Positions 22,801-48,238 of a stretch of DNA of 64,000 nucleotides are shown one piece after another. Source of the DNA: an uncultured Pseudomonadota bacterium (GTDB lineage: Bacteria > Babelota > Babeliae > Babelales > JAUPTZ01); assembly GCA_964429275.1 (NCBI GenBank), contig CAYSBJ010000003.1, positions 1 to 64,000 on the forward strand, read 5' to 3'. The position numbers and the translations under genes are program-made. Position 1 is the stretch's first letter. Each line of letters opens with the position of its first letter. The notes beneath the pieces were generated by a model that saw only the letters and a list, made by a program, of their open reading frames with translations, was not told where the DNA came from and did no database searches.

Positions 22801-23202
22801 AGCGGCAATAGGTTCTTGGGGGGCGGTTTGTGGTATTGCTGGAGCAGGCGCAGTTTCCCCTAGGAGTAGCGGTGTTGCCCCTCTTTCAATTGTGGCTGCG
22901 GATTCAATAGGCGTAGAGTCAGGTGCAGGTTGAGTTGGCGCCCCGTGGTTGGTGGCTTTTTTTCGCTTTTTTTTATGGCGATTTATTCCTGAGGGAGCAG
23001 CTTCAGGGGCGTCATTTTCCGCGGAAGCTGCAGCTTGTTCTGGTGTAGGGGAAAAGAGCATATTAAAGATCGAGGTCACCCACTTTGTTACGCCACCAGC
23101 TGGTGCTCCCGCCGCAGGCGCATCTGCCGCCGCGCATGGCATGCCAGCGCCAAGGGCGAGACTGAAAAGTGAGAGAGAGAGGAGTAATGTGTTTTTTCTC
23201 AT
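19891..23202 (-). CDS. Large hypothetical exported protein with internal repeats and C-terminal two-helix membrane module
   Basis: 1103 aa; signal peptide; RHKKKRKK patch; repeated I.[HN]SL..G...IN/DG..Y units; ends AGVAMVAYG. Confidence 0.82.
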   Translation of the reverse strand: MRKNTLLLSLSLFSLALGAGMPCAAADAPAAGAPAGGVTKWVTSIFNMLFSPTPEQAAASAENDAPEAAPSGINRHKKKRKKATNHGAPTQPAPDSTPIESAATIERGATPLLLGETAPAPAIPQTAPQEPIAADSGQTTEQPDATKEITPLYSATNQTTHTVRKSVKRRYVDPAEATPIIDGTTQEPIATPPYPQSAPRGVPWHDTADFKYEITPDNIETALHESSHDDILIALKSLGYSEWTNEFQKNLSEDDQAYVILRTMGYLLNNNLGHILLPRDIVHSLEQGHICLDFSGSSEPPTFKINGKTYYSGNGLRYCAREVNDTPEGNARALALTAKAFELARQRIAEKSVPRSSLNISRLESYLPQHTGITALHTNTLGIQTLQTINYVLEHLEDEHLVPSEYTPMVRRVLTDETIITRTICHSLLKGQAEPCPTVVDLETYPSYALTINGNNYTRISWGLGGPTLSYTRVVQKLESILSGQQLHQSLQWFDTLQTTERTQALTAPEAPLSDEENVVDEPTEALAPAPAIAEAATIAEPQPAPTDNHIVPGIEVAPQEAPIILPAVVEPAAVAPTRTTTRRGLCTSLARLPLHFAAKACTGIHRVVETCVKKPLSRGYDRLKPACEWYESHRSCLTPFSLMDMAHTAYRRWRPSAETIRSFDLTSGGADTVTEMHVKVAVARIEKEEAASSQLLDFGQGDVLVNQSNQRANRIAIGYASHTLRLMGIEPTSAITAMLNRDSRARQILAIIGRLNHEGKKVFSAQAIANSLQQGRVIQHSVLTDQSQGICFEIDQRIYRLQNNTVTAIGDWKHSIELLGIKALHTDVNPAQRMTILDGARAEELEKYKRIGVFLLLEDTEQAEAFARQHFTELNAASLCFDRRVLHEPATGITALGLGERMYPVIEKISPPTASLLVAADQGLVVAEEKIGKLATQFALTDVTYHSPLISAISSRLPDNSVSTEEIPNPVSASTPKPQSQKMVPNNTSSVHQQLTNSATGTLSASANTISTPEKSKINGFTLCGGALTLGGALVLLQQLRHQLPLAGKLADQIRLTATEEDLSSPAGKSIYRAYGPRKTPTILAFLGMVAGVAMVAYGAHN

Positions 23203-23265
23203 AGAATCTTCCGTTTAAAAATAGCAGTGTAGGCCGTCGTGCTTTTTTCGGGCTACGAAAGGCCG

Positions 23266-23302
23266 AAAAAAAGGGCTCTAGATCTCGAAAAACCTAGAGC
23301 CC
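23266..23302 (-). terminator. Intrinsic terminator after rpsA-ndk
   Basis: GGGCTCTAG/CTAGAGCCC stem with an A7 tract on the left (U-tract on the minus strand). Confidence 0.75.
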
Positions 23303-23333
23303 ACAATGTTTTTTAGAGATTTGTTAAATGATT

Positions 23334-23744
23334 CTAACAAATTTCTGGGAAAAACAACACTATTTCAAATGGAGCAGTTTCTGCTGGGTCTGAACCGTGA
23401 ACTGCGTTTTCGCCGATACTTTTGGCGAACAGCTTACGGAGCGTTCCTTCAGCGGCCTGTGCCGGGTTCGTCGCGCCCATGAGATCGCGCCATGCTTGGA
23501 TGGCGTTTTCTTTTTCAAGAGCAAGGGCTACAACCGGGCCCGAAGTGATGAAAGAGACCAGCTCTTCATAAAACGGACGGGCTTTGTGGACTCCATAGAA
23601 AACTTCTGCTTGTGCACGAGAAATTTTCATCTTTTTCATGCCAACAATCTTAAAGCCTTCTTGTTCAATACGGCTGATGATTGCGCCAGTGTGACCAGCA
23701 GCAACGGCATCAGGCTTAATGAGACCGAATGTTCTTTGGATCAT
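23334..23744 (-). CDS. ndk: Nucleoside diphosphate kinase
   Basis: [24 protein letters not shown]. Confidence 0.98.
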
Positions 23745-23745
23745 A

Positions 23746-25554
23746 TTATTCCTTATCTGCTTTTACGCGATCAGCATGTTCTTGAAGCGCTTGTTGTAAC
23801 ACAGACTTCATAGAAGTAACTGCAGGTTTTGCTTCAGACGCTTTTTTGCGTGCTGCGGCATCATGCAGTTGTTGCTTGCGACGTTCGCCGCTTTCTGCTG
23901 ATTGTTGTGCCTGTGGTGCTGTGTAGTTTGGATCAAGAGCGCGGACTGAAAGGCCGAGCTTACGGTCTTCAGGGCTAATCTTGATTACCTTACAGCGAAC
24001 GGTTTCGCCAGCTTTGATGTTTGAACCTTCGCCCAATTCTGAGCTGTGGATCAAACCCTCAAGGCCGCTGCTCAACCGAACAAATGCGCCAAAGCTTGTG
24101 ATTTTTGATACAGCACCTTCAACAACAGATCCGATTGGGTGTAAAGCCTCAATCTCGGTCCATGGGTCATTTTGCATTTGCTTGATGCCCAAAGAGATCT
24201 TTTTGGTGTCAGTGTCGATTGAAAGGATAACTGCCTCAACAGTATCGCCTTTCTTGTAATGTTCGTTTGGATGCACAATGTGGTCAGTCCAGGAAATGTC
24301 TGAAACGTGAACCAAGCCATCGATGCCATCAGCAAGTTCTACAAACACACCAAAATCAGTAACGTTGGTAACTTTACCAGAAATGCGTTCACTGACTTTG
24401 AATTTTTCCATGATTGTTTGCCATGGATCAGGTGTCAATTGCTTGATACTGAGTGACATGCGGCGGTTTTGTTTATCCAGCGTAATAACAACCACAGTTA
24501 CTTCCTTACCAACTTGGAAGTGGCGGTGGAGGTTAGTGATGCGTTCAGTCCATGAAACTTCTGAAATATGGACCAAACCTTCAACGCCTGGAGAAATTTC
24601 TACGAACAAGCCGTATTCGGTGATGCTCGAAACCTTACCAGTCAATGTGCTGCCGATAGGATATTTTCTTTCGACTTCATCCCATGGATTGCTTGAAAGC
24701 TGTTTGATGCCCAAAGAGATTTTTTCATGTTCACGGTCAAGACCAATGACTTTAACCGTTACAGTGTCACCAATGCGAACGAGTTCGCTTGGGTGATTGA
24801 CGCGTCCCCATGACATGTCGGTGATGTGCAACAAGCCATCAACGCCGCCGATGTCCACAAACACACCGTAGTTGGTGATGTTTTTGGCGATACCTTGGAT
24901 CACTTGTCCTTCAACGATCGTTGTCATTACTTTTGACTTGTTCGCTTGGCGTTCGCTTTCCAAGTAGCGGCGGCGAGAAATAATAACGTTGCCACGCTTC
25001 TTGTTAATTTTTAAGATTTTGCAAACAATTTCTTGTCCAACAAATTGGTCGAAATCGTTAATACGTTGCATATCAACTTGTGAGCCAGGAAGGAAAGCCG
25101 GGATACCGATATCCACGTTAAGGCCGCCTTTGACTTTTCCAAGAACAACACCGGTGACTGCTTTGTCTTCTTTTGCAAGATCAACAATGCGGTCCCATGC
25201 TTTCATGGACTTAGCTTTTTGATATGACAATACTACTACGCCGTTTTCGTCTTCAAGACGGTCAACGAGAACTTCAATCGGAGACCCTTCAGTCAACGTT
25301 GCCAATTCTTGTTGGTTGAATTCGTTCATGGGAATAGTGCCGTATGATTTAAAAGCAACGTCCACTACTACACCGCTGTTACTGCGGCTAAGAACCTTGC
25401 CAGTAAATAATTGGCCTGGTGCAAAGACTGCGCCGTGTTCTTGGTAGAGGCTTTCTAATGTTGCTTCTTCTGTAGGTGTTAACGAGAACTGGTCTTGAAT
25501 GAGTTCTTCGTTTAACAACTGAGTCGCTTTCGCGTCTATCGTACCTTTAAGCAT
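23746..25554 (-). CDS. rpsA: 30S ribosomal protein S1
   Basis: Six S1 repeats ([33 protein letters not shown] and others). Confidence 0.98.
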
Positions 25555-25571
25555 TTCGAAGTTTCTTTTCG

Positions 25572-25597
25572 CTAACAGCCGGTTGCCCAGCCGTCAG
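25572..25597 (-). promoter_or_regulatory. rpsA 5'-leader hairpin with GCAA tetraloop
   Basis: Minus strand CUGACGGCUGG-GCAA-CCGGCUGUUAG, 11 bp with three G-U pairs that form only on this strand; no clear SD before the rpsA ATG. Confidence 0.55.
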
Positions 25598-26333
25598 GGT
25601 TAAACGTGATACATATATATAGTAAAAAACATGGAACCTACGGGGTTTTCATGTTCGGGAGAGCATAACAGAGGTTCGCGGAGAGTGCAAATTGCCCCTG
25701 GCCTCGGCTCTCGCAGATACTCTCGGTCTTTTAGTCCCCCAGGCTTGGGGGTGCATTTGCATGAAGTTGGCTCACTAGCAAGGGGGGATGATACCGGAGA
25801 ACGAGTAATTTTAGGCGAATAAGCACCCGGCGCGCCTTTCGGGGCGACTATGGTTTTTGCCGAACAGCCCCAAACGGGCTGTCTAAGTGAGGCAAAAGAG
25901 TCGGAGCTCCCGGGGGGCACCCGAAAAAAACAGCTCCGCAGGACGTAGGAAGCCATAAGGAAACCTTCCTTATTTTCAAATGCCTCCTTTACATGCCTCA
26001 ATGCGCCCCAAATTGTGCAGTATATCAGGAGTGATTGTGTATTTTGGTTCAAATGCATGTTTTTCCTGCATATGACTCCTTTGCTCGTTTATGAGAGGTT
26101 ATTTGGTGGTTAATAATGACTTATTCATATGTTAATCATTAATTAATCATATAACCCAGTGTGGCCGTAATCAGTCGCTGAGTCAGAAGAAGGTGCTCAT
26201 AGATAATTCCGGTTTTTCGATCGCACGATCTGCAGCTTTCTTTGAAAACGATCTATAAATTTTGTGACGAGAGGCTTGGTATGAAATTTATAGGCAACAT
26301 CATCCAAGATGCTGAATTACATGAGAATCTTGT

Positions 26334-27134
26334 TCACTCGCGGGAGGGGCGTCCCGTTATTTTACTTACATACAGTGGCGGCAGCCCCGGCCGGTACCGC
26401 GGGGCTGTTTTCTCCCATGCCGACTTAGTCGCACGCTCAAACATTCTGCGGACGATTGCCAGTGAGTTTGGGTTGCTGGCGGTGAAGGTTGCGATAGTTT
26501 CGTTTGGTTTTGCTGTGAGAGATGTCAGTTGACATGCTGGTTGGTGCGCCATTAAAGCAGCCACTATTGGTTGGTACACCAAGCCGGGGATGCGTGGCTT
26601 GGCCGGTGCTGGTTTTGGTGTAGGTTGAATGACCGGTACTGGTTCCGGTCGTGCGGGTGTTTGTTGGTACCAGTATGAAACGCCGCTGGTGATGACTAAC
26701 AAAAGAGTTGCCAGGGCCAATCGCCAGGGGAGTGGGCCGCCGTAGGCGCGGCCGGAAAAAAGGCAGTGGAGTTTTGCAGGAGGCACTGTGGCGGGGTCTT
26801 GGGTTGTAACCACATACGGAGGCAGTCTTAGCTGCATAAGAACCGCAATAATTTGCGTTGCGAGTCGTTGCGGGTCTTGCCCCTCCTTGGGGAGCGCGAC
26901 AATGATGCCAAATGGCTTTTTGTGTGTCGGCAGCAGTTGGAGATCGAGGAAGGTGCGAAGCTGAAATGGGGCCGTTAGGTTGTTGTTGTTGTCTAGCAAA
27001 TAAGGGGTTGGGGTGAGCTGCGCTTGCTCGGCCGTGCCAGAGTTCAGTGTTTTGAGGGCGGCATTCGTTTTAGTTATCGTTAAAATAGTGGTAGGGCGAG
27101 CGGATATGGCCCGCCACAAAAGAGTAAGATGCAT
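26334..27134 (-). CDS. Hypothetical bitopic membrane protein, possibly GspL/PilN-like
   Basis: Cytoplasmic N-terminal region, single TM (WRLALATLLLVITSGVSYW), Pro-rich linker, C-terminal CQLTSLTA. Confidence 0.5.
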   Translation of the reverse strand: MHLTLLWRAISARPTTILTITKTNAALKTLNSGTAEQAQLTPTPYLLDNNNNLTAPFQLRTFLDLQLLPTHKKPFGIIVALPKEGQDPQRLATQIIAVLMQLRLPPYVVTTQDPATVPPAKLHCLFSGRAYGGPLPWRLALATLLLVITSGVSYWYQQTPARPEPVPVIQPTPKPAPAKPRIPGLVYQPIVAALMAHQPACQLTSLTAKPNETIATFTASNPNSLAIVRRMFERATKSAWEKTAPRYRPGLPPLYVSKITGRPSRE

Positions 27135-27206
27135 ACAGTCTCCGGTATGTGCCGTGCTGACTTATGCGTTGATGTAGGTGCCTACGATGAACAAACAGCG
27201 TTAGCT

Positions 27207-27288
27207 GTCATTGCGATAAACGAAGTGCCGAAGCAAGCCAGGAATGGAGTGAAATTTAGCTGGATTGCCACGCTGCGCTCGCAATGAC
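27207..27288. repeat. RPE-like palindromic repeat element
   Basis: GTCATTGCGA...GAAGCAAGCCAG...CTGGATTGCCAC...TCGCAATGAC, with a 10-bp perfect terminal inverted repeat. Confidence 0.85.
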
Positions 27289-27369
27289 TCGCTTTGCGCG
27301 GTCTTGAAAATTGATATCTTCAATGGCATTGATTACAGGATGAACTGTTGTCGCAAAATACGCAATCGT

Positions 27370-30300
27370 TTAGTTGTTAATCACTCTCACTACTTGGAGT
27401 GGTGATGCCGCAAAGAGAGGGCTCGTATCTTTGGTTGGCGGCAGCAAGATCTCTGAGAGTATGTCATCAATAGTTTCTACAAAGGTGACTTGCACGTCGG
27501 CCGGCATCTCTTTGAGTGCCTGGATGCTCTTGCGGTTTTCTTCCGGGACAAAAACGCGTTTAAGGCCGTGGTTGCGTGCCCCTTCAAGTTTTTGGTCAAG
27601 GCCACCAATAGCAAACGCATTGCCGTATAAATCTATTTCGCCGGTCATGCCATAGTCATGGCGTGTTGGACGTCCCGTAAGACAGGAAACAATAGCGGTA
27701 CAAAATGCAAGTCCTGCCGATGGGCCAGATTTTGGGGTGGCTCCGCGCATGGCGTGAATGTGGATATCAACGCCATTGAGGCTTATATCTTTTGGAAGTG
27801 CCATATTTGGTGCGTAGGTTGCCATGATGTGGTTAATGTTTGTTTTAACATAGCTTACCGCAGCGTTTGCAGATTCCTGCATATCTTCTTTTGGCAGTCC
27901 ACTTACTTTTACGTCTCCTCTTCCTCTGCGTGCCGTGACTTGAATAAGAAGAACGCCACCACCAGACATACTCCAATAGAGACCATTGCTTGTTCCTACG
28001 CTATCAACATTGAAAATAGCATCGTGAGTAAGTGGCTCGCCAAGGATAGCATCAATGTTGTTTGGCGTGACAACTAGGGGAGTAGTACTATTTAAGCTTC
28101 GTGCATACCGCGCAACAATTGTTTTGAGGCGACGCCCAAGCTGTCTCACTCCAGCTTCTTTGGTGTAGTTGTAGATGATTGTGTGAAGAAGCTCTGGTGT
28201 TATAAATGGCAGTGGGCTGAGGTTGTTTTGCGTATACAGTTTTGGAAGCAAATATTTTTGGGCGATTTCTACTTTCTGGCGTTCAGAGTAGCCAAGCATC
28301 TCGACCATGGTGAGGCGGTCCCAGAGTGGGTATGGAATTTGGCTTGTGTCGTTGGCTGTTGCAATGAAGAGCACTTTTGAAATATCAACAGGAACTCCCA
28401 AGTATTCATCAAGAAACTTAGTATTTTGCGTTGGATCGAGCACATCTAAGAGTGCATTTGCGATCGCAATATGCGGAATTTTGTCTATTTCATCAAGAAC
28501 TATAATGGTATTTTGCGAACCGGTGTCGATAAGTGCTTGTGCAATAACGCCGGTATGACCATTTTGGTAATCAGCCGAAAGACCTTTAATGTCGTATATT
28601 GAGGTGAGGCTGCTCATTGGGACGCGGATGAATTTCTTATTTAATGCTTTTGCCAGTGCTTGCGCTACTGAGGTCTTACCAACCCCTGGAAGCCCAGCAA
28701 GACAGAGTACTGAACCAGAGCTGCTATCGGTATTGCGTTGGGCCAAAGCGAGGTAATCGAGAATCGAGTCTTTTACTTCATCAACACTGTAGTGTGTTTC
28801 ATCAATTGCCGCAGCGACGGCGTCTAAGTTATAGTTCGTGGAGTCTTCTCCTGGAATCCATGGGAAATCAAGAACTGCGCTGATATAGGCACGAAGTTTT
28901 TCATGCGCTTCAGTTCGTTCACGGGTGGCATCAAAAGCCTCAATAGCGTCAAAAAGTTTCTTGCGTGCAGCAGTGCTGAGGTACGGCTCAATCTCTTTTG
29001 CCTTGCGTTTAAATTTGGCCAGGCTATTGTGAGCATTGCCAAGGAATGTTGATAGATTGTCAGTGGTAAAAATGATAGTTTCACCACGTAAATAAGCGCG
29101 TGCAAATTTACCGATCAAGAAATTGAGCTGGTGCGTTAAGCCGCGAAGGCCATCTTCAAACGTATACTTATCGATTATGAGGCCAATAACTTCGTTGCTG
29201 AACGACGGTTTTTGGCTCATAAGGCCACTTTTTTGGAGAAGGCGCGGGATAATTTTACTTTGCGCGATTTCGATTTTCTCTGCTTTTGTATATGACGGCA
29301 CTTGTACAATAATCATGCGATCACGAAGTGCCGATGGAATTTCTCGTTCGTTATTTGCGGTGGCAATGAACAGTATTTTTGAGATATTGAACGGAATGTT
29401 TAGGTAATCGTCAGTGAAGGCATAATTTTGTTCTGGATCTAAAGCATGAAGGAGGGCATCGGCGGGGGAGCCGTGTTGTTGGTTTTGTGTGCCCATTTTG
29501 TCTATTTCATCGAGTAAAATAACCCCGGATGCGCTTTGCATGTTCTTGATGGAGCGCATAATTTTTCCTTCGGCAGCATTAATATATGAGCGGCTTACGC
29601 CGGTAATATCTGATTGCAGGTGAACGCCGGCCAGACTGATGCGGGCCATTTTTTTGCCAAGTGCTTGTGCGATATGCTTACAAATGGAGGTCTTACCTGT
29701 TCCTGGGGCGCCGACCAGGCAGAGTACTAGTGGTGACCCTTCTGGTGTTACCATGCGTAACGCCAAGTGAGTGAGAATGATATCTTTCACTTGGTCCATA
29801 CCATACTGGTATTCATCAAGCATTTCGGCTACTTTTTCAAGGTCATACTCTTCATTCTTGGTTGAAGCAGCATCGGCCCATGGTAATGAAAGTGCGAAGC
29901 GTAAATATGCTTCAAGCCCTGGAGCTTCTAGTTGGTTTCCTTTGCTGCGGTCATACCGCTCAATAGTGTCGGACAAATAATTTGTTGTTACTTCCGGCAG
30001 TTGTAAGTCTTGTAGCTGTTGATGGAAGTTGCCTGCTAAGTCCTGATTTTCTTCTCCGCTCATGCCACTCGCTTTGCCTTGTTGAAGGATCAGTTCTACA
30101 AGAAGTTTGAGTTTGTTTTGGATGGTGGAGTTTTGTGTTAAAAATTCCAAGGCTTTGAGCGCACTTATTTCCAAATTCAATCGCTCGACGAGTGTTTGGA
30201 TGAATTGATTGCAGGTAGTAATGGTGCTGAGCTCTTTTTGCAGCGCCTTTGTTTTGTACCTACGGGCTAAGAGGTCATATATTTCTTCGATAGTTTTTAC

Positions 30301-30750
30301 TGATATGCGGTTAAAGAGAGGGGCATCTTTATAAAAACCACAGGCGCTTGGACTCACTTCAAGGCGTGTCTCTTTGTTGAGTGTGCCAGGAAGAGGAGTT
30401 GTGCGTATGGAATCGTGTGGGTTATACACTTGAACGATGTCTTTGAGTGTTATCGTATAAGTAGGTGGGTTTTTTTTGAGACCTTCTCCCAGCGTGCTAC
30501 TGCTGACAACGCCAGTTGCTCCCCATGCTGTTGAAATGTCCTCATCAGTTTTAAGCAAAAATGCTACTAATTCTTGTGTTGTTTGATAATGTGTAAGTTG
30601 ATTTTGTATTTCCGGCTGTTCGGAGGACACTGTCCGATTAGTACTTGGTAAAAGTAGCCCATCCACATATACGACTGGCAGTGAAAATACGGTGTTGGTA
30701 ATGATACCACAGGCGAGAGCGGTAAATAGTGATACTAAGTGCTTACGCAT
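27370..30750 (-). CDS. Atypical Lon-family (S16) protease: signal peptide, two tandem AAA+ modules, protease domain
   Basis: Walker A GAPGTGKT and GLPGVGKT; two LDEIDK Walker B motifs; PKSGPSAG (Ser) and IGGLDQK (Lys) dyad; hydrophobic N-terminus. Confidence 0.92.
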   Translation of the reverse strand: MRKHLVSLFTALACGIITNTVFSLPVVYVDGLLLPSTNRTVSSEQPEIQNQLTHYQTTQELVAFLLKTDEDISTAWGATGVVSSSTLGEGLKKNPPTYTITLKDIVQVYNPHDSIRTTPLPGTLNKETRLEVSPSACGFYKDAPLFNRISVKTIEEIYDLLARRYKTKALQKELSTITTCNQFIQTLVERLNLEISALKALEFLTQNSTIQNKLKLLVELILQQGKASGMSGEENQDLAGNFHQQLQDLQLPEVTTNYLSDTIERYDRSKGNQLEAPGLEAYLRFALSLPWADAASTKNEEYDLEKVAEMLDEYQYGMDQVKDIILTHLALRMVTPEGSPLVLCLVGAPGTGKTSICKHIAQALGKKMARISLAGVHLQSDITGVSRSYINAAEGKIMRSIKNMQSASGVILLDEIDKMGTQNQQHGSPADALLHALDPEQNYAFTDDYLNIPFNISKILFIATANNEREIPSALRDRMIIVQVPSYTKAEKIEIAQSKIIPRLLQKSGLMSQKPSFSNEVIGLIIDKYTFEDGLRGLTHQLNFLIGKFARAYLRGETIIFTTDNLSTFLGNAHNSLAKFKRKAKEIEPYLSTAARKKLFDAIEAFDATRERTEAHEKLRAYISAVLDFPWIPGEDSTNYNLDAVAAAIDETHYSVDEVKDSILDYLALAQRNTDSSSGSVLCLAGLPGVGKTSVAQALAKALNKKFIRVPMSSLTSIYDIKGLSADYQNGHTGVIAQALIDTGSQNTIIVLDEIDKIPHIAIANALLDVLDPTQNTKFLDEYLGVPVDISKVLFIATANDTSQIPYPLWDRLTMVEMLGYSERQKVEIAQKYLLPKLYTQNNLSPLPFITPELLHTIIYNYTKEAGVRQLGRRLKTIVARYARSLNSTTPLVVTPNNIDAILGEPLTHDAIFNVDSVGTSNGLYWSMSGGGVLLIQVTARRGRGDVKVSGLPKEDMQESANAAVSYVKTNINHIMATYAPNMALPKDISLNGVDIHIHAMRGATPKSGPSAGLAFCTAIVSCLTGRPTRHDYGMTGEIDLYGNAFAIGGLDQKLEGARNHGLKRVFVPEENRKSIQALKEMPADVQVTFVETIDDILSEILLPPTKDTSPLFAASPLQVVRVINN

Positions 30751-30816
30751 GAGAGTGTCCTTGCTTATGCTGTTTATTTGAACGTAATGAGTATATACGT
30801 CATCCTAATATGAAAA

Positions 30817-33177
30817 TCATGGTTTTGGTAGTAGGACATGAGAAAGAACTTCCTGTACATCTTCTACAAACACTATTTTTATTCCTTCTGGCAATGCGCC
30901 CATTCCCTTAACATCTTTTTCGTTTTGTTTTGGGAAAATGACTTTAGAAAAGCCATGTTGTTTGGCGGCAAGTAGTTTTTCTTTAACTCCGCCGATAGGG
31001 AGTACATTGCCCTGCAAATTCAACTCGCCGGTCATGGCACAGTCGCTGCTGATAGGGCGCCCCGTGTATACCGAAAAAATCGAAGAAAGCAAAGTAATTC
31101 CAGCAGATGGCCCATCTTTTGGTATGCCGCCGGCCGGTGCATGAATGTGTAAATCATACTCTACAAACATCTTGGCATCGATATTGAAGTCTTTGGCATG
31201 AGAGCGGGCATAACTTACTGCTGCTCGTGCTGATTCTTTCATAACATCGCCGAGTTGGCCGGTCAAAATTAATTTGCCGGTTCCTGGCATTAATAATGCT
31301 TCCATCTGTAAGACTTCGCCTCCATATGGAGTCCAGGCAAGGCCGTTGGTAATGCCGACTTTGTGCGTGCCGATTTTTAACATGTCTATGGCACGGCGTG
31401 GGCCTAAGTGGTCAGCCAGCGAGCGCTTAGTAAAATTGATACCTTTTTTGTTTTCAATGTAGTGACGTGCAAATTTGGCACACAATTTTTGGAATAACTT
31501 TGAGAGTCCGCGAACCCCTGCTTCGCGGGTATATCCAGAAATAAGCTCATCAATGACATCTTTTGAGAAAGCAATTTCGGTTTTTGCTAGTCCTGAGTCA
31601 CCTATAATTGTAGGAATCAGGTGGCGTTTTGCGATTTCCATCTTCTCTTCTTTGGTATATCCAGCTAACTGAATGATCTCCATACGGTCACGCAATGGCG
31701 CTGGAATGGTGCTGAGATCGTTTGCTGTGGTCACAAAAAGTACTTTTGAGAAGTCAAAATGTACGCCCAAATAGTTGTCGTAAAATGCTTTGTTTTGCTC
31801 TGGATCCAACGCCTCAAGGAGTGCGGCAGAAGGGTCGCCTTTGTGTGATGAGCCGATTTTATCTATTTCATCAATAAGTAGCACAGGGTTAAGGCTGCCA
31901 GATTTTTTAATTGCTTGTACAAACCGACCGGGAAGGGCGCCAACATACGTCCTGCGGTGGCCACGTATTTCAGCTTCGTCATGGACGCCGCCGACAGCGA
32001 TGCGGGCGAAGGTTCGCCCCATTGCTTGTGCAATTGACTTACCAAGAGATGTCTTGCCAACACCTGGTGGCCCTGCAAGGCAGAGGATTGGGCTTGCGCA
32101 GTCGCTTTTTAGGTACTTGATAGAAAGGTAATCAAGTATCCGTTCTTTGACTTCATGGAGGCCAAAATGTCCCTCATCAAGAACCTTTTTAGCAACGGTA
32201 ATGTCATTATTGTCTTCTGTGAAATTGCCCCATGGCATACCAATTAGCCATTCAAGATGGTTACGCATTACAGTTGCTTCCAGCGAGTCACTTGCGGTCT
32301 TTTTAAGGCGGTTGAGTTGACGATTGAATTCCGTTCGTGCTTCATCGGAAAATTTGGTTTCAAGTGCTTTTTTTTCAAAATCTTCGATTTCTGAGTCGTT
32401 ATCGTCCCCCAGTTCTTTTTGAATGGCACGAAGTTGTTCTCGAAGGTAGTACTCGCGTTGTGATTTATTAATGGAATCACGGGTCGATGTGCGAATTTTT
32501 TCCTCTACCTCACTTGACGATACAAGGCGGTCAAGGTGGAGTACAATTGCGTCAAGAACCTGAGTAATAGATTCTTTTTCTAATAACTCCTGTGCCTGAT
32601 TAACTGGTAAGTTGAGATGCGAGAGAACAAAGTCGCTTACCTTTTGGGGGTTTTCAATTTGATAGATTATTGAAGTGAAATCTGGGCTAAATAATGTGTT
32701 ACTTGCCGGCAATTTTGTGACGCTAGTGCAAATGGTTTTGATATAGTAATCACGCTTTTCAGGATTGCAATCTTCTATCATTGGCGGGATTAACTCAACT
32801 TTTGCGCTGAGGCTTTCCTCGGTCGGCATAATATGATGAACGAGCGCTTTTTGTACCCCTTGCACCAACACTTTAATCCCACCATCAGAGAGCTCCATAA
32901 GGCGAATAATTTCACCAATGGTTCCGACTGCAAAGAGGTCGTCAATACTAATTGGTTCTCCATCATCATCGTAGTTGCTGTTCGGCAGTGTCTTTGTGGC
33001 CAACATGAGCACTTTTTTGTCTTCTTTCATTGCTTGCAAAATGCCAGCAATGATTTTTGTGTCGAGGACAAGAAGTGGCACTACCATGTGAGGAAATACA
33101 ACGACATCGATGGTCGGAACAACTGCTATATCACGGAGCTGCGCCGTTCCTCCTGATTTGTTTTCCTGTTTTTTCAT
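30817..33177 (-). CDS. lon: ATP-dependent Lon protease (canonical LonA)
   Basis: LON N-domain VVFPHMVVPL, GPPGVGKTS, GHRRTYVGA, DEIDK, PKDGPSAG, GGVKEK. Confidence 0.97.
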   Translation of the reverse strand: MKKQENKSGGTAQLRDIAVVPTIDVVVFPHMVVPLLVLDTKIIAGILQAMKEDKKVLMLATKTLPNSNYDDDGEPISIDDLFAVGTIGEIIRLMELSDGGIKVLVQGVQKALVHHIMPTEESLSAKVELIPPMIEDCNPEKRDYYIKTICTSVTKLPASNTLFSPDFTSIIYQIENPQKVSDFVLSHLNLPVNQAQELLEKESITQVLDAIVLHLDRLVSSSEVEEKIRTSTRDSINKSQREYYLREQLRAIQKELGDDNDSEIEDFEKKALETKFSDEARTEFNRQLNRLKKTASDSLEATVMRNHLEWLIGMPWGNFTEDNNDITVAKKVLDEGHFGLHEVKERILDYLSIKYLKSDCASPILCLAGPPGVGKTSLGKSIAQAMGRTFARIAVGGVHDEAEIRGHRRTYVGALPGRFVQAIKKSGSLNPVLLIDEIDKIGSSHKGDPSAALLEALDPEQNKAFYDNYLGVHFDFSKVLFVTTANDLSTIPAPLRDRMEIIQLAGYTKEEKMEIAKRHLIPTIIGDSGLAKTEIAFSKDVIDELISGYTREAGVRGLSKLFQKLCAKFARHYIENKKGINFTKRSLADHLGPRRAIDMLKIGTHKVGITNGLAWTPYGGEVLQMEALLMPGTGKLILTGQLGDVMKESARAAVSYARSHAKDFNIDAKMFVEYDLHIHAPAGGIPKDGPSAGITLLSSIFSVYTGRPISSDCAMTGELNLQGNVLPIGGVKEKLLAAKQHGFSKVIFPKQNEKDVKGMGALPEGIKIVFVEDVQEVLSHVLLPKP

Positions 33178-33320
33178 ACAGTGCTACCTCCCCCTGAGAG
33201 CTTAAAAAATGTAATAATTTACATACCTACCGTCACCCGTGGTATCTTGTGCCGTTTCTGGCAATTCTTTCCTTGCGGCTTGGTAACCAGCACTGCTTCA
33301 ACTTTAAAGGATATCTCGGT

Positions 33321-34016
33321 ATGCGAACAACCATTTCTAAATATGACCTCTCATTGCAGCATGTTACCAAGGGTTTTGAGATTGGCCAGGGAGTGAGACC
33401 AGTTTTTTTGGACTTGCATTATACTTTTACTCCTGGGGTGTCATACGCTATTGTAGGGGCTTCTGGATCGGGTAAATCAACCCTTCTTCATGTCATAGCA
33501 GGGTTTGAGTCGGCTGATACCGGAATGGTTCTCTGGGGAGGGCGAGACGTTGCCGATTTTTCGACCGCTGAAAGAGAATTATGGGTTTCTCGTCATATAG
33601 GGTTTGCTTTTCAGTATCACTACTTGATCCCAGAACTCTCGGTGTATGACAACGTCTACGTTTCAGCGCTCTTGACTGAGCGAACGGTGGAGCAACGGGA
33701 GATTGAAGAGCTTTTATTGGCGTTGGGCCTTCATGATCATGCTGGCCACTATCCCCACCAACTTTCGGGGGGGCAACAGCAACGAGCTGCGTTAGCTCGG
33801 GCACTTATTCGCCGGCCAACGTATTTGATAGCGGATGAGCCGACCGGAAGTTTGGATGCCAAAACTGGCGGTGAAATAATTGATTTCTGTCTTTCTTACC
33901 AAAAAAATCATGGCATGGGTCTCATCATAGCTACCCATGACCAGTCGGTGTATGAAAAAATGGATGTGGTATTGCGGCTTGAGGGGGGAGTTTTGCGCCA
34001 AAAACCCATTCCTTAA
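33321..34016 (+). CDS. ABC transporter ATP-binding protein, LolD/MacB-like
   Basis: [39 protein letters not shown]. Confidence 0.9.
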
Positions 34017-34040
34017 CTTTCCTTGACTAAGGATGCGTCG

Positions 34041-34553
34041 TTAATCAAGAAGGGGTCGCAGCATCTCATTAATGCCCGACTCTGCATCTTCGGCATATTT
34101 TTGGGCTCGAATATAAAAACTATTCGCTTCATATTTGTGTTCTTCCTTGCCGATATGGTAGAGAAATACATGGTAAGCCTCGATAGCGCGCCTTAAGTTG
34201 TCTAAGTGATCCATGAACTGAACGACATTACCGCCAGAAAACTTATTTATGTACGATCCTATGGCAGTGGTTAAGCGCTTAATTTCTTCTGATGCTATTG
34301 TGGTAGGGTTTGGAAGTAAAGTTGGCTGCTTTTTTTGCGACATCGCATGATATGGAGATTCTGGGATATAAAATGTATCGCTTGCCTCTGCGGCGCTGCT
34401 GCTTGCAAGCATTGCGTTGTCTGCTTCGGCAAATATGGAGGCGTTTGTCCATTCATTTAGCTCAAGTTTTGTGTCGTCGAAGCATTGTAATGAGGTGCTG
34501 ACTACGGAGAGGGATAATACGAAAAATGAAGAGGTCATGTTTTTCTGTAGCAT
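34041..34553 (-). CDS. Hypothetical exported protein
   Basis: 170-aa ORF with hydrophobic N-terminus. Confidence 0.65.
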   Translation of the reverse strand: MLQKNMTSSFFVLSLSVVSTSLQCFDDTKLELNEWTNASIFAEADNAMLASSSAAEASDTFYIPESPYHAMSQKKQPTLLPNPTTIASEEIKRLTTAIGSYINKFSGGNVVQFMDHLDNLRRAIEAYHVFLYHIGKEEHKYEANSFYIRAQKYAEDAESGINEMLRPLLD

Positions 34554-34632: not shown

Positions 34633-36657
34633 CTAGATGTCAGTAAGACGGAGTGTTCCTGAGTCATTATATCGTTTTTCTGCTGACGTGCAGAGATTGT
34701 CTCTAAGGCTTTCGTTCTTCATGTTGCGAAGAAGACTTTTAATACTTCTTTGGTCACGAGCTTTGATTGCAGGAATTAGCACACAGTATATGTCATAAGT
34801 TATTGTTTTTGTATTCCACTGGCTTATAACGAGTTCCTCTTCTGCTGTTTTACGTTCTCCTTCGGGAAGTGTGGTATCGTCAACTATTTTTTCGAGCATT
34901 GCGGTTTTTTCTGCGTACTTTCGGAGTTCTTTTTCTAGATGTTGGCGAGCTTGTTGGAGGTCTTCTTTTGAAGGAGTTTGTTTAAATTTATAATTATCTT
35001 CGGCCACTTTTAGCGGCGCCTTGACCTCTCCGGATGCTCTTGGCAGCGTACATGTTTTCCTGCACTCTTGAATGAGGGTGTCTATTTTATTTTCTAACAT
35101 TTCTGCCTCGGTAGCAAGTTGATCAACTGCTTCACACAACCTCTCCAGTACGTCTTCGGAGGCTGTTGTTGCTTGTAACATCGTTATGTATTCTGCGAAA
35201 AATATGCAGTCAAATGTGTCTTCTTGCTGTTTAATAAGATTTTTGAATTCTCTTACAGAGGATGCGAGGTCTCCTGTCTTCATGCTGTTCAATGCGATTA
35301 CTTCAATAAAGCTGAGGCGACTATCGAGCAAATCCATTTTATTTCTGCATATTGTGCAGTTCGCTCGTATGTCGAAGAAATCTGTGGAGGAAGTAGGTCC
35401 ACTTATGACCTTGGTGAGGTTTTCTGCAGCTTGCTCCATCTCTTTGGCTGCGTCCATGCAATCGACTACTGCCTTTTGATACTCTTCATAGAGTGATGAA
35501 TACTCTCGCACGTGGTCGTTAATGATTGTTCTCATAGCGTACAAATGTTCTGGGTTTAGCTCTTCTGATCTAGTTAGGATTGCAAGGGCGCTTTCGCGGT
35601 GTATGAAGCCCGCTATTTTTTTGGGGGATTTTTCGCGTTTTCCTCGTTTTTTTGGTGGTGTTTTCTTTCTGATACTAGGATTTTTTTCGTGGCTTGATGT
35701 TGCGGGTAGGGCGATGCTGTGTTCACCGTTTACCCAAGCGAGAAGGCTCTTTATTTTTTCTTTGTTGTGACCAGTAATCATGGTTTCATCATCTAGTAAT
35801 CTACGAAATTCCGTAACGTTTAAATCTAAACAAGTTGATGTTTCTGTAAGGGTATATTTTTCGGGTGCATTTTTGAGGGTCTCTCGTGCTGCATAAAAAC
35901 AGCAAAGTTTATCTGCCATGTTTAAGGGATTTGTTGTCGCGTCTGATTCTCTTATTTGCGTCAGTGCGTCAAAGCGCTCTCGCGCGATTTTAACGAGTGC
36001 ATGGAGTTGTGCATACAGTTTTTTTTGTGATTCATTTTTTTCTCTTCTGGCTGCCGTTTCTTTTTCTTCTTCGATGGCATCGAGCGCGCGGATTGCTGCT
36101 GCTCTGGTTGCTAAATCTTTTGCTATTTCCGCGTCAGCGGCCTCTAGCTCTGCTGTGCGAGCTTCTTTCTCCTTCCTGATTGCCTCATAGATGGTCGTGT
36201 CAGCCATGAGTCTTTCAATGACAGTGCCATTTTCCCCAGCTGAATTGCGGGCCATCTCGGGTGTCAGAAAGGTGGTAACGCAGTAAAAACCAGCTTTATC
36301 CATAGAGAGGGTATAGAAAAATGCTGGCAAGCCAGTGACATCGTCATAGAGAGGGACCAGGAATGAAGGTTGCTCTTTATACGTGTGACGAACAACAATT
36401 GATGGGTTAATTCTTGCAGCTTCGAGTGCCGATTGAGCGGTCGCTCTGAGCGCTGGATCTACCGGTGAACCGCCTCGGCGTGGGAGGTGTTCTTCGTCTT
36501 TCATGTGATCCAGTGTTGCCTCACTGAGTTCCCATCGCTTGGATGCGTCAAAGGCGAGGCCTGCAGTCGCGGCCTCCGGCGCTGCGGTGGCACAGAAGAC
36601 GGCGGTTGTGCCGAATGTGAGCAGGCTTAAAATGAGTAAAAATACTTTGTTTTTCAT
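34633..36657 (-). CDS. Hypothetical exported coiled-coil protein, tandem paralog A
   Basis: Start MKNKVFLL; signal peptide; N-terminal region nearly identical to 36675-38759; KKTPPKKRGKREKSPKK patch. Confidence 0.85.
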   Translation of the reverse strand: MKNKVFLLILSLLTFGTTAVFCATAAPEAATAGLAFDASKRWELSEATLDHMKDEEHLPRRGGSPVDPALRATAQSALEAARINPSIVVRHTYKEQPSFLVPLYDDVTGLPAFFYTLSMDKAGFYCVTTFLTPEMARNSAGENGTVIERLMADTTIYEAIRKEKEARTAELEAADAEIAKDLATRAAAIRALDAIEEEKETAARREKNESQKKLYAQLHALVKIARERFDALTQIRESDATTNPLNMADKLCCFYAARETLKNAPEKYTLTETSTCLDLNVTEFRRLLDDETMITGHNKEKIKSLLAWVNGEHSIALPATSSHEKNPSIRKKTPPKKRGKREKSPKKIAGFIHRESALAILTRSEELNPEHLYAMRTIINDHVREYSSLYEEYQKAVVDCMDAAKEMEQAAENLTKVISGPTSSTDFFDIRANCTICRNKMDLLDSRLSFIEVIALNSMKTGDLASSVREFKNLIKQQEDTFDCIFFAEYITMLQATTASEDVLERLCEAVDQLATEAEMLENKIDTLIQECRKTCTLPRASGEVKAPLKVAEDNYKFKQTPSKEDLQQARQHLEKELRKYAEKTAMLEKIVDDTTLPEGERKTAEEELVISQWNTKTITYDIYCVLIPAIKARDQRSIKSLLRNMKNESLRDNLCTSAEKRYNDSGTLRLTDI

Positions 36658-36674
36658 GGAGATCTCTTGTGGTC

Positions 36675-38759
36675 TTAGTTGTCGGCCAAGCACAGCATGC
36701 CTGAGCGGCTGTATCGCCTTTCTGCTTGTGTACGAAGTGCATCCTGCCGTTCTTTGCTCGCGGAGCGGAGGCGTTCTTGCCTCGTTTGATAGTCTATTCC
36801 GTCTTCCATTGCATTGCGTATTGCCTCAATGTCAGCAAGAATTGTGGTTTTATTTTTTTCAATGGTCGCTAGTGCATTTGTTACGATGGCACGAGTTTTC
36901 TCAGCCCGAGTTAATTCTTCACGCATTGTTAATTCTTCACGCATTGTTAATTCTTCACGCCTTGTTTTTAACGTATCGCTTTGTGCTTTGTATTCAGTAA
37001 GCTCTTTCTGCAGCGTCATATAGCAAGCTTCGAGTTCTTCTCGTGTTGGCGTTATGCCTTCCTGGTAATGCGCTTCAGCAGCAAGTACAGCAGCATCAAT
37101 GTCCTCTTTTATTGTGGGTAAGGTGCAGGTAGTTCTGCATTCTTCAATGAGATCAGATATTTGGGATTGAAGATCTAAGGCTTCACGAATGAGTATGTCG
37201 TATCTTTTGGAAACAGCCTTGGAGTCTTTATAGAATTTTAAAATCTCAAGATTAATCTTAAAATTTGCAACAAAAATCGTATGTTCTAATGCTTCTTCTA
37301 GTTGGCTGGTAAGAGCCTTGAATCTTCTTATAAAGAGATCTTTTTTTTCTCTGCTTGCACTGTTGAAGGCAATTGTTTCTATAAAATTGAGCTTATTTTT
37401 AAGTAGCACCTCTTCATTATCAAGCCTATTGCGCTGAGTTGTGGCATCGCGGTATTCATCAGATGAGCTACTTTTGTCATTTCTTATTGTCGTTAATAGT
37501 TTTTTTTGCGCACAGATAAGTTTAATGCTTAGTGACTGGTATGCTTGACAGAGATGGGTATATTCGTGACATTGATGGTCTATGATGAACTCTTGAGCTT
37601 TGAGTCTTGCGATCTCTTCTTGCATCTTGATCGCTCTATCTTCAGATACAAATGTAGATTCTACTTCTAGTCTGAATGCTTCATAAGGTGGGAACTTTTC
37701 TGCACCCTTAGGGTCTTTCTTCCTTAGTATGTCCGCAGCTGGTTGAAAAGTGTCTTTTGGTCTTTTTGATGTGCTAGCTTCTGGTTTGCTTTTCTGACGT
37801 CGAGCAGCCGGAGGTGTGGCAACTTTGTCTTCGCCGTTGATCCAAGCAAGAAGGCTGTTGATTTTTGTTTTGTTGAGAGCGGTGACAGTCCCCTCAACAT
37901 CTAATAATGTGCGAAATTCCTCTGCGTCAAAAGAGTCTGGAACTTCTTTGTGGTCAACGCTGAATGGTGCATTTTTGAGGGTCTCTCGTGCCGCGTAAAA
38001 ACAGTTCATGTTATCTATGATGCTATCAATTTCTCCGGCTGTGCTATCTTTTTTGATTTGCTTTAGTTCGTAAAGGCGTTTCCACGCGGTTTCAACGAGT
38101 GCGTAAAGTTGCGCATACAATTTTTTTTGTGATTCAGCGCTTTCTTTTTTGGCGGCTGCTGCTTCCTCTTTTGCCGCGGCATCGAGTGCACGGATTGCTG
38201 CTGCTCTGGTTGCTAAATCTTTTGCTATTTCCGCGTCAGCTGCTATTTGTGTTGCCCTTTCAGCTGCTTGTTCTTTCTTGATTGCCTCATAAATGGAGCC
38301 GTCGTGCATAAGCTTTTCAATACTGCTTCTGTTTTCTCCGGCAGAATGGAGCGCCATCTCGGGTGTCAGAAAGGTGGTAACGCAGTAAAAACCAGCTTTA
38401 TCCATAGAGAGGGTGTAGAAAAATGTTGGCAAGCCAGTGGCATCGTCATAGAGAGGGACCAGGAATGAAGGCTGCTCTTTATATGTGTGACGAACAACAA
38501 TTGATGGATTGATTCTTGCGGCTTCAAGTGCTGATTGAGCAGTCGCTCTGAGTGCTGGATCTACCGGTGAACCGTCTCGGCGTGCGAGGTGTTTTTCGTC
38601 TTTCATGTGCTCCAGTGTTGCCTCGCTGAGTTCCCATCGCTTGGATGCGTCAAAGGCGAGGCCTGCAGTCGTGGCCTCCGGCGCTGCGGTGGCACAGAAG
38701 GTGGCGGTCGTGCCGAATGTGAGCAGGCTTAAAATGAGTAAAAATGCTTTGTTTTTCAT
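36675..38759 (-). CDS. Hypothetical exported coiled-coil protein, tandem paralog B
   Basis: GGGGGA SD; start MKNKAFLL; alignable to paralog A along its whole length. Confidence 0.85.
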   Translation of the reverse strand: MKNKAFLLILSLLTFGTTATFCATAAPEATTAGLAFDASKRWELSEATLEHMKDEKHLARRDGSPVDPALRATAQSALEAARINPSIVVRHTYKEQPSFLVPLYDDATGLPTFFYTLSMDKAGFYCVTTFLTPEMALHSAGENRSSIEKLMHDGSIYEAIKKEQAAERATQIAADAEIAKDLATRAAAIRALDAAAKEEAAAAKKESAESQKKLYAQLYALVETAWKRLYELKQIKKDSTAGEIDSIIDNMNCFYAARETLKNAPFSVDHKEVPDSFDAEEFRTLLDVEGTVTALNKTKINSLLAWINGEDKVATPPAARRQKSKPEASTSKRPKDTFQPAADILRKKDPKGAEKFPPYEAFRLEVESTFVSEDRAIKMQEEIARLKAQEFIIDHQCHEYTHLCQAYQSLSIKLICAQKKLLTTIRNDKSSSSDEYRDATTQRNRLDNEEVLLKNKLNFIETIAFNSASREKKDLFIRRFKALTSQLEEALEHTIFVANFKINLEILKFYKDSKAVSKRYDILIREALDLQSQISDLIEECRTTCTLPTIKEDIDAAVLAAEAHYQEGITPTREELEACYMTLQKELTEYKAQSDTLKTRREELTMREELTMREELTRAEKTRAIVTNALATIEKNKTTILADIEAIRNAMEDGIDYQTRQERLRSASKERQDALRTQAERRYSRSGMLCLADN
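36910..36960. repeat. 18-bp in-frame tandem repeat, about 3 copies (encodes REELTM)
   Basis: GTTAATTCTTCACGCATT twice plus a partial third copy. Confidence 0.92.
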
Positions 38760-38960
38760 GGAAATCCCCCGGTTAGTATGAATGGAAAAGATACCAGAAT
38801 GTTTTCACATAGTCTATTTTTGGGGTTGGCCCGGCCCGTGGGATGGCGGTGCAACAGGGTGCGCCCGACAACCTCGTTTACTTTTGAGCAAAATAACGTA
38901 TGCTAGCTCCCACTCGCTTCAGAGCCCTTGTTTTACTCCCTCACCGGTGAAAGGAAAAGT

Positions 38961-41732: not shown

Positions 41733-41743
41733 AGGAGTAAGTA

Positions 41744-43036: not shown

Positions 43037-43154
43037 AGGGAGTGGGGTGTATTTCAAGGGGTAGGATCGGGCTTTACATTCCTTTTTTACTTAACTACAA
43101 TGAACCGCAATAGGACTATTAGTCTTGTTATTAATCGGACACAGGAGATTGATT

Positions 43155-47794: not shown

Positions 47795-48238
47795 ATGATA
47801 TTTGGTAAAAACCGGGCAGCGGCTTTCTCGCTGATCGAAATTCTGATTGCTATGGCGATCATTGGTACTATGTTTGCTCTCATGGCGCCAAACGCAATGA
47901 AGTATTTCGGGCGTGCTAAAAAGACAGCGACAATAAGCAACCTGCAAGCATTAAAGCAGGCGCTGCAAGAGTACTACAACGAAATTGGTCACTTTCCAAA
48001 CAAGGCTGAAGGTAACTTGAATGCATTGGTAAAGATGCCAAAGGGTGATAAGTTTAAAACCCGTTGGACAGGCCCGTACATTGATGGAGACGAGTTGCCA
48101 GAAGATGGTTGGAAGCAACCGTTTGTGTATAATGCGCCACCAGTTAAATATAAAAAATACAAGTTCTATGAGCTGTATTCGATCGGGGAAACAGGAGATG
48201 AAGACGCCAAGAATGAAGATCTTGCCGTCGGTCAGTAA
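47795..48238 (+). CDS. gspG: Major pseudopilin
   Basis: A|FSLIE N-methylation motif; ALQEYY..GHFP; WTGPY; DGWKQPFVY; LYSIG. Confidence 0.92.
   Translation: MIFGKNRAAAFSLIEILIAMAIIGTMFALMAPNAMKYFGRAKKTATISNLQALKQALQEYYNEIGHFPNKAEGNLNALVKMPKGDKFKTRWTGPYIDGDELPEDGWKQPFVYNAPPVKYKKYKFYELYSIGETGDEDAKNEDLAVGQ

Follow-up and report, generated by a model that had tools for sequence, protein, structure and literature searches.

Lon is the textbook single-ring, single-chain AAA+ protease, and the bacterial periplasm is the textbook ATP-free compartment, in which proteolysis proceeds independently of ATP through enzymes such as DegP and Prc. A gene from a protist-parasitic bacterium of the Dependentiae raises the question of whether a Lon protease can carry two motors in one chain, and in which compartment such a machine would work. 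The gene, here called the two-motor Lon (P0001), occupies positions 27370..30750 on the (-) strand of the window, the whole stretch of 64,000 nucleotides (nt) analysed here, which is the start of contig C3 (CAYSBJ010000003.1) of assembly GCA_964429275.1. Its open reading frame (ORF) of 1126 amino acids (aa) plus stop comprises a signal-like extension, a LON N-domain, two AAA+ units and a Lon_C protease domain. The new analysis provides solid grounds for regarding this protein as a real and conserved variant of LonA with a tandem motor, and the features of its N-terminus point to export from the cytoplasm.

A LonA protease with two motors

Pfam identifies two AAA, two Lon_lid and one Lon_C domain in P0001. 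The protein scores 736 bits against the TIGR00763 'lon' model (cut-off 608.05), in two stretches, and 518 bits against NF008053, below the cut-off of 891. Its scores against ClpA TIGR02639 (64.7 bits, cut-off 993) and ClpB (30 bits, cut-off 1232) place it outside the Clp/Hsp100 family, and it is not a member of the Cdc48 family either. As delimited by Pfam, motifs and a structural model, AAA+ module 1 spans residues 286-575 (29026..29895; all parts of the gene lie on the (-) strand) and consists of an alpha/beta domain and a lid. Its Walker A motif, GAPGTGKT, starts at residue 347 (29689-29712), Walker B is formed by D414/E415 (29506-29511), and the pore-loop tyrosine is Y389 (29584-29586). 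Residues 576-625 (28876..29025) form a second three-helix bundle, identified from the model and from sequence comparison, with which the duplicated unit begins. AAA+ module 2 follows at residues 626-905 (28036..28875), again supported by Pfam, motifs and model, with Walker A GLPGVGKT from residue 686 (28672-28695), Walker B D753/E754 (28489-28494) and pore-loop Y728 (28567-28569). The chain ends in the Lon_C protease domain at residues 906-1104 (27439..28035; Pfam E 8.4e-48), which carries the catalytic S1011 (27718-27720) and K1054 (27589-27591). All motifs listed in an earlier reading of the window made from the sequence alone, the sequence-only reading, are thus present in the translation at the positions it gave.

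The full-length model has a mean predicted local distance difference test score (pLDDT) of 79.2 and places helices at residues 238-287, before module 1, and at 575-628, before module 2; residues 1-21 appear as a lone low-confidence helix. The two modules are 38.5% identical over 314 aa, and module 1 is 41% identical to the neighbouring canonical Lon. P0001 is a complete LonA enlarged by 23 residues at its N-terminus and by another three-helix bundle with its AAA+ module.

The sequence-only reading had described the region ahead of module 1 as unique and lacking the LON N-domain. Pfam indeed returns nothing for residues 1-293 except a chance-level GAT match (E 0.56). More sensitive comparisons nonetheless overturn the claim and identify the ~260-aa region as a divergent LON N-domain. 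In a genome search, the N region also gave one weak match to a canonical Lon (in G024). A profile of family residues 24-163 matches canonical Lon N-domains in hhalign with E 1.4e-4 and a probability of 52%; in that alignment residues 24-105 are in register, and the first strand meets the first strand of the canonical domain. Residues 170-276 align with canonical positions 167-301 across a gap of ~28 residues (hhalign, E 1.1e-4). Modelled by AlphaFold2 from four orthologs, residues 24-288 reach a mean pLDDT of 68.4, with values of 76-93 across most of the first 120 residues. When this model was used as a Foldseek query, the top 13 matches were LonA N-terminal domains (7cr9_B with E 4.4e-8; 3ljc, 6vbk, 6ihg and 7cay), followed by the Lon-like domain of cereblon. 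The beta-rich part of the predicted domain covers residues 24-143 (30322..30681), as judged by hhalign, AlphaFold2 and Foldseek. The helical part covers residues 144-285 (29896..30321), in which the long helix is shortened and which ends in the three-helix bundle before module 1. At the level of modelled fold and profile only, residues 24-285 carry a LON N-domain.

Twelve full-length relatives, which share 40-73% identity with P0001, were aligned, and the alignment indicates that neither motor has been left to decay. Residues of the Walker A, Walker B, sensor-1, Arg-finger and sensor-2 classes are invariant in all 12 for both modules: K353/T354, D414/E415, N466, R478 and R536 in module 1, and K692/T693, D753/E754, N800, R812 and R869 in module 2. 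The protease residues S1011 and K1054, the former within the motif PKSGPSAG, are equally invariant (12/12). Pore-loop Y389 is invariant as well, and Y728 is kept in at least 90% of the relatives. Mean pairwise identity falls from 68% in module 1 through 59% in the inter-module bundle, 56% in module 2 and 49% in the protease domain to 44% in the helical and 33% in the beta-rich part of the N-domain, and reaches 20% in the extension (residues 1-23). Since the catalytic residues and the modules themselves are conserved, both rings are under purifying selection as ATPases, and both tiers should be competent for ATP hydrolysis. The proposal that the gene derives from lon and retains two intact AAA+ modules together with an intact Ser-Lys protease is therefore borne out by Pfam, trees and invariant residues.

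An N-terminal extension with the features of an export signal

The N-terminus of P0001 reads MRKHLVSLFTALACGIITNTVFS. Its first 23 residues (30682..30750) form an extension resembling a signal peptide, in which the n-region MRK precedes a hydrophobic core and V-F-S occupies positions -3 to -1. The start codon is credible, as a Shine-Dalgarno (SD)-like AAGGA at 30758..30762 (-), read from the sequence, lies 7 nt before the ATG at 30750. The features of a Sec signal cleaved by signal peptidase I are present, namely a charged n-region, an h-region and a c-region, and the soluble domain starts at residue 24. Specifically, the h-core comprises ~13 strongly hydrophobic residues, after which the c-region is polar and has small residues at -3 and -1. 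Lys and Arg occur on the N-terminal side only.

A comparable stretch precedes the first N-domain strand in 11 of the 12 relatives. Ten of these stretches are 22-24 aa long; the 33 aa of P0006 probably reflect a start called too far upstream. All 11 have one or two Lys/Arg near the start, and their best 9-mers reach a hydropathy of 2.2-3.2. In canonical Lons (n = 111), the corresponding stretch has a median length of 12 residues, and none of the 77 with at least 9 residues there reaches a 9-mer hydropathy of 1.9 (maximum 1.42). At the aligned cleavage site, position -1 is Ala or Ser in 9/11 and position -3 is Val, Leu or Ala in 11/11, and the two relatives with proline at -1 have an A-x-A-like site four residues upstream. 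Because the extension is only 20% identical, against 68% for module 1, it is its features rather than its sequence that are conserved. Taken together, the signal-like extension, the modules and the catalytic residues recur in relatives from other assemblies, which by sequence is more than chance would produce. A lipoprotein signal for signal peptidase II was considered and rejected, as C14 is not conserved: the extension lacks Cys altogether in P0005, P0006 and P0010.

No other 19-residue window of P0001 has a mean hydropathy of 1.3 or more, and the protein thus lacks a second hydrophobic segment. According to the positive-inside rule, the positively charged flank of a membrane segment stays in the cytoplasm. 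With charges on the N side and no second transmembrane (TM) segment, the entire chain beyond residue 23 would under this rule lie outside the cytoplasm, with the extension cleaved or uncleaved. The Sec-like signal proposed by the sequence-only reading thus gains weight from its retention in 11 of 12 relatives, its absence from the 77 canonical Lons and the SD-like site ahead of the ATG. Export is well supported as a prediction from these features, and P0001 probably leaves the cytoplasm in one form or another.

Origin of the tandem motor and authenticity of the locus

Trees of the individual modules outline the history of an old duplication within the chain. The module-1 copies of the family form one clade and the module-2 copies another (Shimodaira-Hasegawa-like approximate likelihood ratio test 99 and 96; 100/99 and 99/96 in a second tree). 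Both clades are joined by the single modules of P0149 (772 aa) and P0221 (777 aa), two proteins from metagenomes, with all canonical Lons outside (support 100; 100/100). Since P0149 and P0221 share the signal-like start and the N region while having one module, the duplication took place inside a lineage that already bore the signal. A tree that holds modules 1 and 2 together is not rejected (approximately unbiased test, p 0.231), so that duplication after the split from P0149 and P0221 stands beside a later loss of one module in these proteins. The module trees do not single out a parental Lon paralog among the Dependentiae.

The 201 genomes sampled from the phylum all belong to one order. 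Among them, the full-length family was found only in the genus of the window, which has no cultured member; there it is present in 4/4 genomes, split over two contigs in one. A search with the N region alone returned the same distribution plus the weak canonical-Lon match in G024. Full-length relatives comprise the proteins of three other genomes of the genus and at least ten metagenome proteins, which carry generic database names such as 'ATP-dependent Lon protease', 'S16 family serine protease' and 'AAA family ATPase'. One relative, P0003, is ~72-73% identical to P0001 over the whole protein, with 89% identity in module 1 and 49% in the protease domain; a domain-level mosaic or recombination is a possible explanation.

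The tandem layout itself is not unique to this family, as the sequence-only reading had implied. In a protein survey with a module hidden Markov model, the best 150 of 23,975 representative matches comprised 23 multi-module Lons (19 with two and 4 with three modules), 124 single-module proteins and 3 below threshold. The proteins' own modules pair in trees for P0016, P0123, P0132, P0124 and the P0130/P0134/P0140 group, and the tandem and triple layouts therefore arose repeatedly. Further tandem forms are found in at least three other genomes (G036, G159 and G028). A signal heuristic passed 11 and failed 12 of the 23 multi-module representatives, and some tandem Lons thus have no signal. The metagenome proteins P0017, P0127, P0138 and P0144 are 1370-1675 aa long and Gly/Ala/Arg/Pro-rich, with three Walker A motifs. 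By eye, neither the high-GARP group P0127/P0138/P0144 nor P0017 has a hydrophobic start. In P0017, Walker B of the first module has degenerated, with EG in place of DE.

An unusual architecture in a metagenome bin with foreign-looking contigs (C4-C7) could be suspected of being an assembly chimera, a gene with a mis-called start or a decaying gene. The modules are just 38.5% identical, which argues against a collapsed or duplicated repeat, and orthologs exist in other genomes of the genus and in metagenomes. Raw-read assemblies add independent support, as Logan contigs cover both modules and the linker. Specifically, in run X1, possibly the source sample, a single Logan contig is identical to the window from 28047 to 30900. 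In a second sample, run X2, 30/30 bins are represented at 99% identity or above, and one of its pieces (28784-29096) bridges the linker between the modules; run X3 contains only short parts at 95-99% identity, from a relative. Together with the open frame, the conserved catalytic residues and the SD-like site before the ATG, these data refute the artefact as far as sequence data allow and make it extremely improbable.

Comparison with known systems

The closest known system is LonA (MEROPS S16, TIGR00763), represented by structures from Yersinia pestis (6v11/6on2), B. subtilis (3m6a), E. coli (6u5z), Meiothermus taiwanensis (7fd4) and human LONP1 (7krz). P0001 shares with it the fold of the LON N-domain, the Lon-type AAA+ module with its lid, the Lon_C Ser-Lys dyad and the PK(S/D)GPSAG motif, which in LonA has been reported as PKDGPSAG in the accessible part of a 2008 survey (PMC2605481). 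In contrast to LonA, P0001 has two AAA+ units per chain, whereas the solved relatives have one, which matches the query twice. The 23-residue signal-like extension, an N-domain beyond the reach of Pfam and the shortened long helix are further differences. At E 1e-20 or better, P0001 has 37 relatives in the PDB, each of them a Lon chain or a fragment of one, and a second AAA+ module occurs in none (0/37). By sequence and fold, P0001 is therefore a LonA that departs from its class in two respects, the single AAA+ module and the lack of an export signal.

The type II AAA+ unfoldases (ClpA, ClpB/Hsp104, ClpC and p97/Cdc48) likewise have two AAA+ modules per chain, each with a pore-loop aromatic residue, and stacked tiers are expected in both cases. 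In ClpA and ClpB, the two modules come from different AAA+ clades, whereas those of P0001 are Lon-type sister copies, and its peptidase is fused to the chain rather than provided as a separate ClpP. P0149 and P0221 resemble P0001 in their signal-like start, divergent N region and Lon_C domain (residues 24-579 of P0001 align with 29-576 of P0149 at 35% identity) and differ in having one AAA+ module. The other multi-AAA Lons, with two modules (P0016, P0123, P0132) or three (P0124, P0125, P0258), as well as the high-GARP proteins and L017/P0015, also place tandem Lon-type modules before one Lon_C domain. They differ in that they stem from independent duplications and have ankyrin or unassigned N regions, and the high-GARP group lacks a signal. 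FtsH and archaeal LonB, finally, are AAA+ proteases with a hydrophobic membrane-targeting element, as is P0001. They have two TM segments, which leave the ATPase in the cytoplasm, whereas the only such segment of P0001 is N-terminal and carries its charges on the N side.

Literature searches, with subscription journals outside their coverage, returned no description of a tandem-AAA or signal-bearing Lon, and neither form appears in the accessible part of the 2008 survey of Lon architectures (PMC2605481).

Genomic setting

The genome measures 1.208 Mb in 8 contigs and is 98% complete. The nearest named relatives of the two-motor Lon are from 'Candidatus Dependentiae' and Babeliales, and the source bacterium is a protist-parasitic, energy-parasitic member of the Dependentiae. 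Five open frames of 435-497 aa match the Pfam ATP/ADP translocase family (TLC), all above the Pfam cut-off. The genome encodes three Lon-type Lon_C genes, of which two are canonical and the third is the two-motor Lon, as well as one signal peptidase I, three secretins, one HtrA-like protease and one S41 protease. The second canonical lon (C2:126957-129422, 821 aa) adjoins an ATP/ADP translocase gene (C2:125397-126740). A search of the genome for Pkinase found none, and hence no second class of signal-bearing ATP users of that kind. Contigs C4-C7 are short (4-12.5 kb) and have a GC content of 60-70%, against 46% elsewhere; they are probably contamination of the bin.

Within the window, the two-motor Lon lies directly downstream of a canonical LonA gene (P0002, 786 aa, 30817..33177 (-)), as the sequence-only reading had it, at a distance of 66 nt. 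Pfam assigns LON_substr_bdg, AAA, Lon_lid and Lon_C to P0002, which scores 835 bits against TIGR00763. The 66-nt gap contains no terminator-like or promoter-like site. On the other side follow P0276, rpsA and ndk. P0276 is a conserved ORF of 266 aa (26334..27134 (-)) directly downstream of the two-motor Lon. It matches no Pfam family and has one central TM-like helix (WRLALATLLLVITSGVSYWY) and a Pro-rich stretch. In G188, the ORF that follows the two-motor Lon (L015:4177-4974) shares 35% identity with P0276 (E 8e-34). P0276 is a possible membrane partner of the protease. The order of lon, two-motor Lon and P0276-type ORF is the same in G188, and that of lon and two-motor Lon recurs in G043.

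Between rpsA and P0276, the ~780 nt at 25555-26333 hold only an implausible 152-aa ORF (25600-26058), and an Rfam scan of 23000-34500 gave no match at the gathering threshold. On the far side of lon, 34633-45098 carries a run of large ORFs (686, 694, 934, 430 and 657 aa) that match no Pfam family and begin with signal-like sequences; the first two have near-identical signal sequences and are thus paralogs. The type II secretion system (T2SS) that the sequence-only reading placed in the window is represented by T2SSF (GspF-like, 46366-47577) and T2SSG (GspG-like, 47795-48238), both on the (+) strand and ~16 kb away from the two-motor Lon.

Elsewhere in the genome, four single-AAA proteins have a TM-like segment before the AAA domain: L026 (C2:217025-218323), L027 (C2:97657-99618), L028 (C1:348370-350094) and L029 (C2:252845-254467). 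A hydrophobic 19-mer at the N-terminus is present as well in L026, L027 and L029; L028 passed no more than a cruder signal heuristic. The topology of the four is FtsH-like, so that the ATPase probably faces the cytoplasm, although by length they are not FtsH.

Where the two-motor Lon may act

The available data are best accounted for by a model in which P0001 is a Sec-exported two-tier Lon that uses host ATP in the periplasm or envelope space, a model we regard as plausible and hold tentatively. The precursor would be exported by Sec and cut by signal peptidase I near residues 23/24, just before the first N-domain strand. Subsequently, the mature protein would work in the periplasm or envelope space, which should hold host ATP, since the translocases can work only on host ATP that has passed the outer membrane. 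It would form a hexamer in which two stacked homologous ATPase tiers lie above a Ser-Lys proteolytic chamber. The divergent LON N-domain would bind substrates, which would then be threaded past Y389 in tier 1 and Y728 in tier 2 and cleaved. Both tiers would hydrolyse ATP, and the better conserved module 1 may be the main motor or the assembly platform, by analogy with one ring in ClpB or p97. ATP parasitism and a degenerated envelope have been ascribed to the Dependentiae (Yeoh 2016, PMC4776705). The premise of the sequence-only reading that the periplasm lacks ATP is weak in this genome with its several ATP/ADP translocase genes. In favor of the periplasm over the host, the substrate-binding end has retained a LON N-domain and carries no host-type module, and the gene lies between a housekeeping lon and the conserved small membrane protein P0276.

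The signal evidence is shared by another reading, in which P0001 leaves the cell through the T2SS or in outer-membrane vesicles after Sec export, assembles in the host cytosol and degrades host proteins with host ATP. Such delivery is conceivable, and we consider it rather unlikely. The T2SSF and T2SSG genes of the window and the three secretins of the genome would offer a route, and in other Dependentiae, ankyrin repeats have replaced the N-domain of Lons that bear a signal. In L017 (G036), the order is signal peptide, ankyrin, AAA, AAA and Lon_C, in L023 (G051) it is the same with one AAA, and P0015 is an ankyrin form as well. In Chromulinavorax destructans, according to the accessible part of its description, signal peptides are predicted in 44% of coding sequences and 78% of ankyrin proteins and have been read as host-directed, and vesicle-like structures have been seen (Deeg 2019, PMC6561590). 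In the P0001 family, by contrast, the LON N-domain is kept without any eukaryote-type domain, ankyrin being confined to other lineages, and the neighbours lon, rpsA and ndk are housekeeping genes. The sequence-only reading had suggested delivery by the T2SS; the secretion genes are there, but no feature ties the two-motor Lon to them across ~16 kb, and the T2SS belongs to the core genes of the phylum as far as the accessible text of Yeoh 2016 (PMC4776705) describes it. In addition, a hexamer of ~730 kDa would be too large to pass a secretin, and the ~122 kDa protomer would have to stay unassembled in the periplasm.

The opposite reading keeps the enzyme in the cytoplasm or facing it, with the hydrophobic N-terminus serving as a tether or unused for export, so that P0001 would be a specialised housekeeping paralog comparable to FtsH or archaeal LonB. 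Every characterised Lon works where ATP is made, the gene follows a housekeeping lon with no terminator-like site in between, and the four AAA proteins L026-L029 probably keep their ATPase inside by an N-terminal hydrophobic segment and a second TM segment. Lon is also listed among the cytoplasmic proteases of Chromulinavorax destructans in the accessible part of Deeg 2019 (PMC6561590). Moreover, tandem and triple-AAA Lons without a signal exist (12/23 fail the heuristic), so that an extra module is independent of export. This reading is difficult to reconcile with the N-side charges and the missing second TM segment, which by the positive-inside rule put the bulk of the protein outside. The core of ~13 residues, polar c-region and small residues at -3 and -1 follow the pattern of a cleaved signal and not that of an N-out anchor, and such a stretch is found in 0/77 canonical Lons. 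A cytoplasmic location therefore appears unlikely.

Several observations weigh against the periplasmic model itself. The signal heuristic is self-made rather than a trained predictor and passes 310/929 crude ORFs; its false positives include Rossmann-type first strands and canonical Lon N-domains, which account for at least 6 of 11 single-module passes. P0013, the most distant full-length relative, has no clear signal, and the uncharged stretch of residues 4-29 in P0001 is long enough for an uncleaved anchor. With a predicted template modelling score of 0.41, the full-length model does not allow the mutual placement of domains and tiers to be read. We know of no demonstrated ATP-dependent protease in a bacterial periplasm, and a literature search on Lon, signal peptide and periplasm agrees. 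Periplasmic ATP in the Dependentiae is likewise something we infer, and the signal-bearing ankyrin Lons L017 and L023 point to host proteins as targets. The idea that Lon replaces a missing periplasmic protease was dropped, as the HtrA-like and S41 proteases leave no obvious gap. A genome-wide pattern of exported AAA proteins was also rejected, since 4 of 5 further AAA proteins with hydrophobic N-termini have a second TM segment before the AAA domain.

One other protein fits the periplasmic model. L025 (G000:C1:255697-257520 (-)), 607 aa long, has two classic AAA domains with AAA_lid_3, a signal-like start and no further TM segment, and its relatives L036, L038 and L039 (in G043, G019 and G114) have signal-like starts as well. 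By sequence, it is a second candidate for an exported ATPase. The broader idea of an energised periplasm, in which host ATP crossing the outer membrane fuels Sec-exported AAA+ machines that include the two-tier Lon and at least L025, is doubtful at present.

Implications for Lon proteases and the Dependentiae

A conserved Lon with two intact ATPase tiers, and relatives with three, provides a natural system for investigating what a second homologous ring adds to an AAA+ protease. If the signal is functional, an intracellular parasite would carry out ATP-driven proteolysis beyond its own cytoplasm, be it in the periplasm or in the host, and the large predicted secretomes of the Dependentiae would have to be read differently. 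An energised periplasm, if true, would mean ATP-dependent unfolding and proteolysis outside the cytoplasmic membrane, a process that textbook bacteriology excludes.

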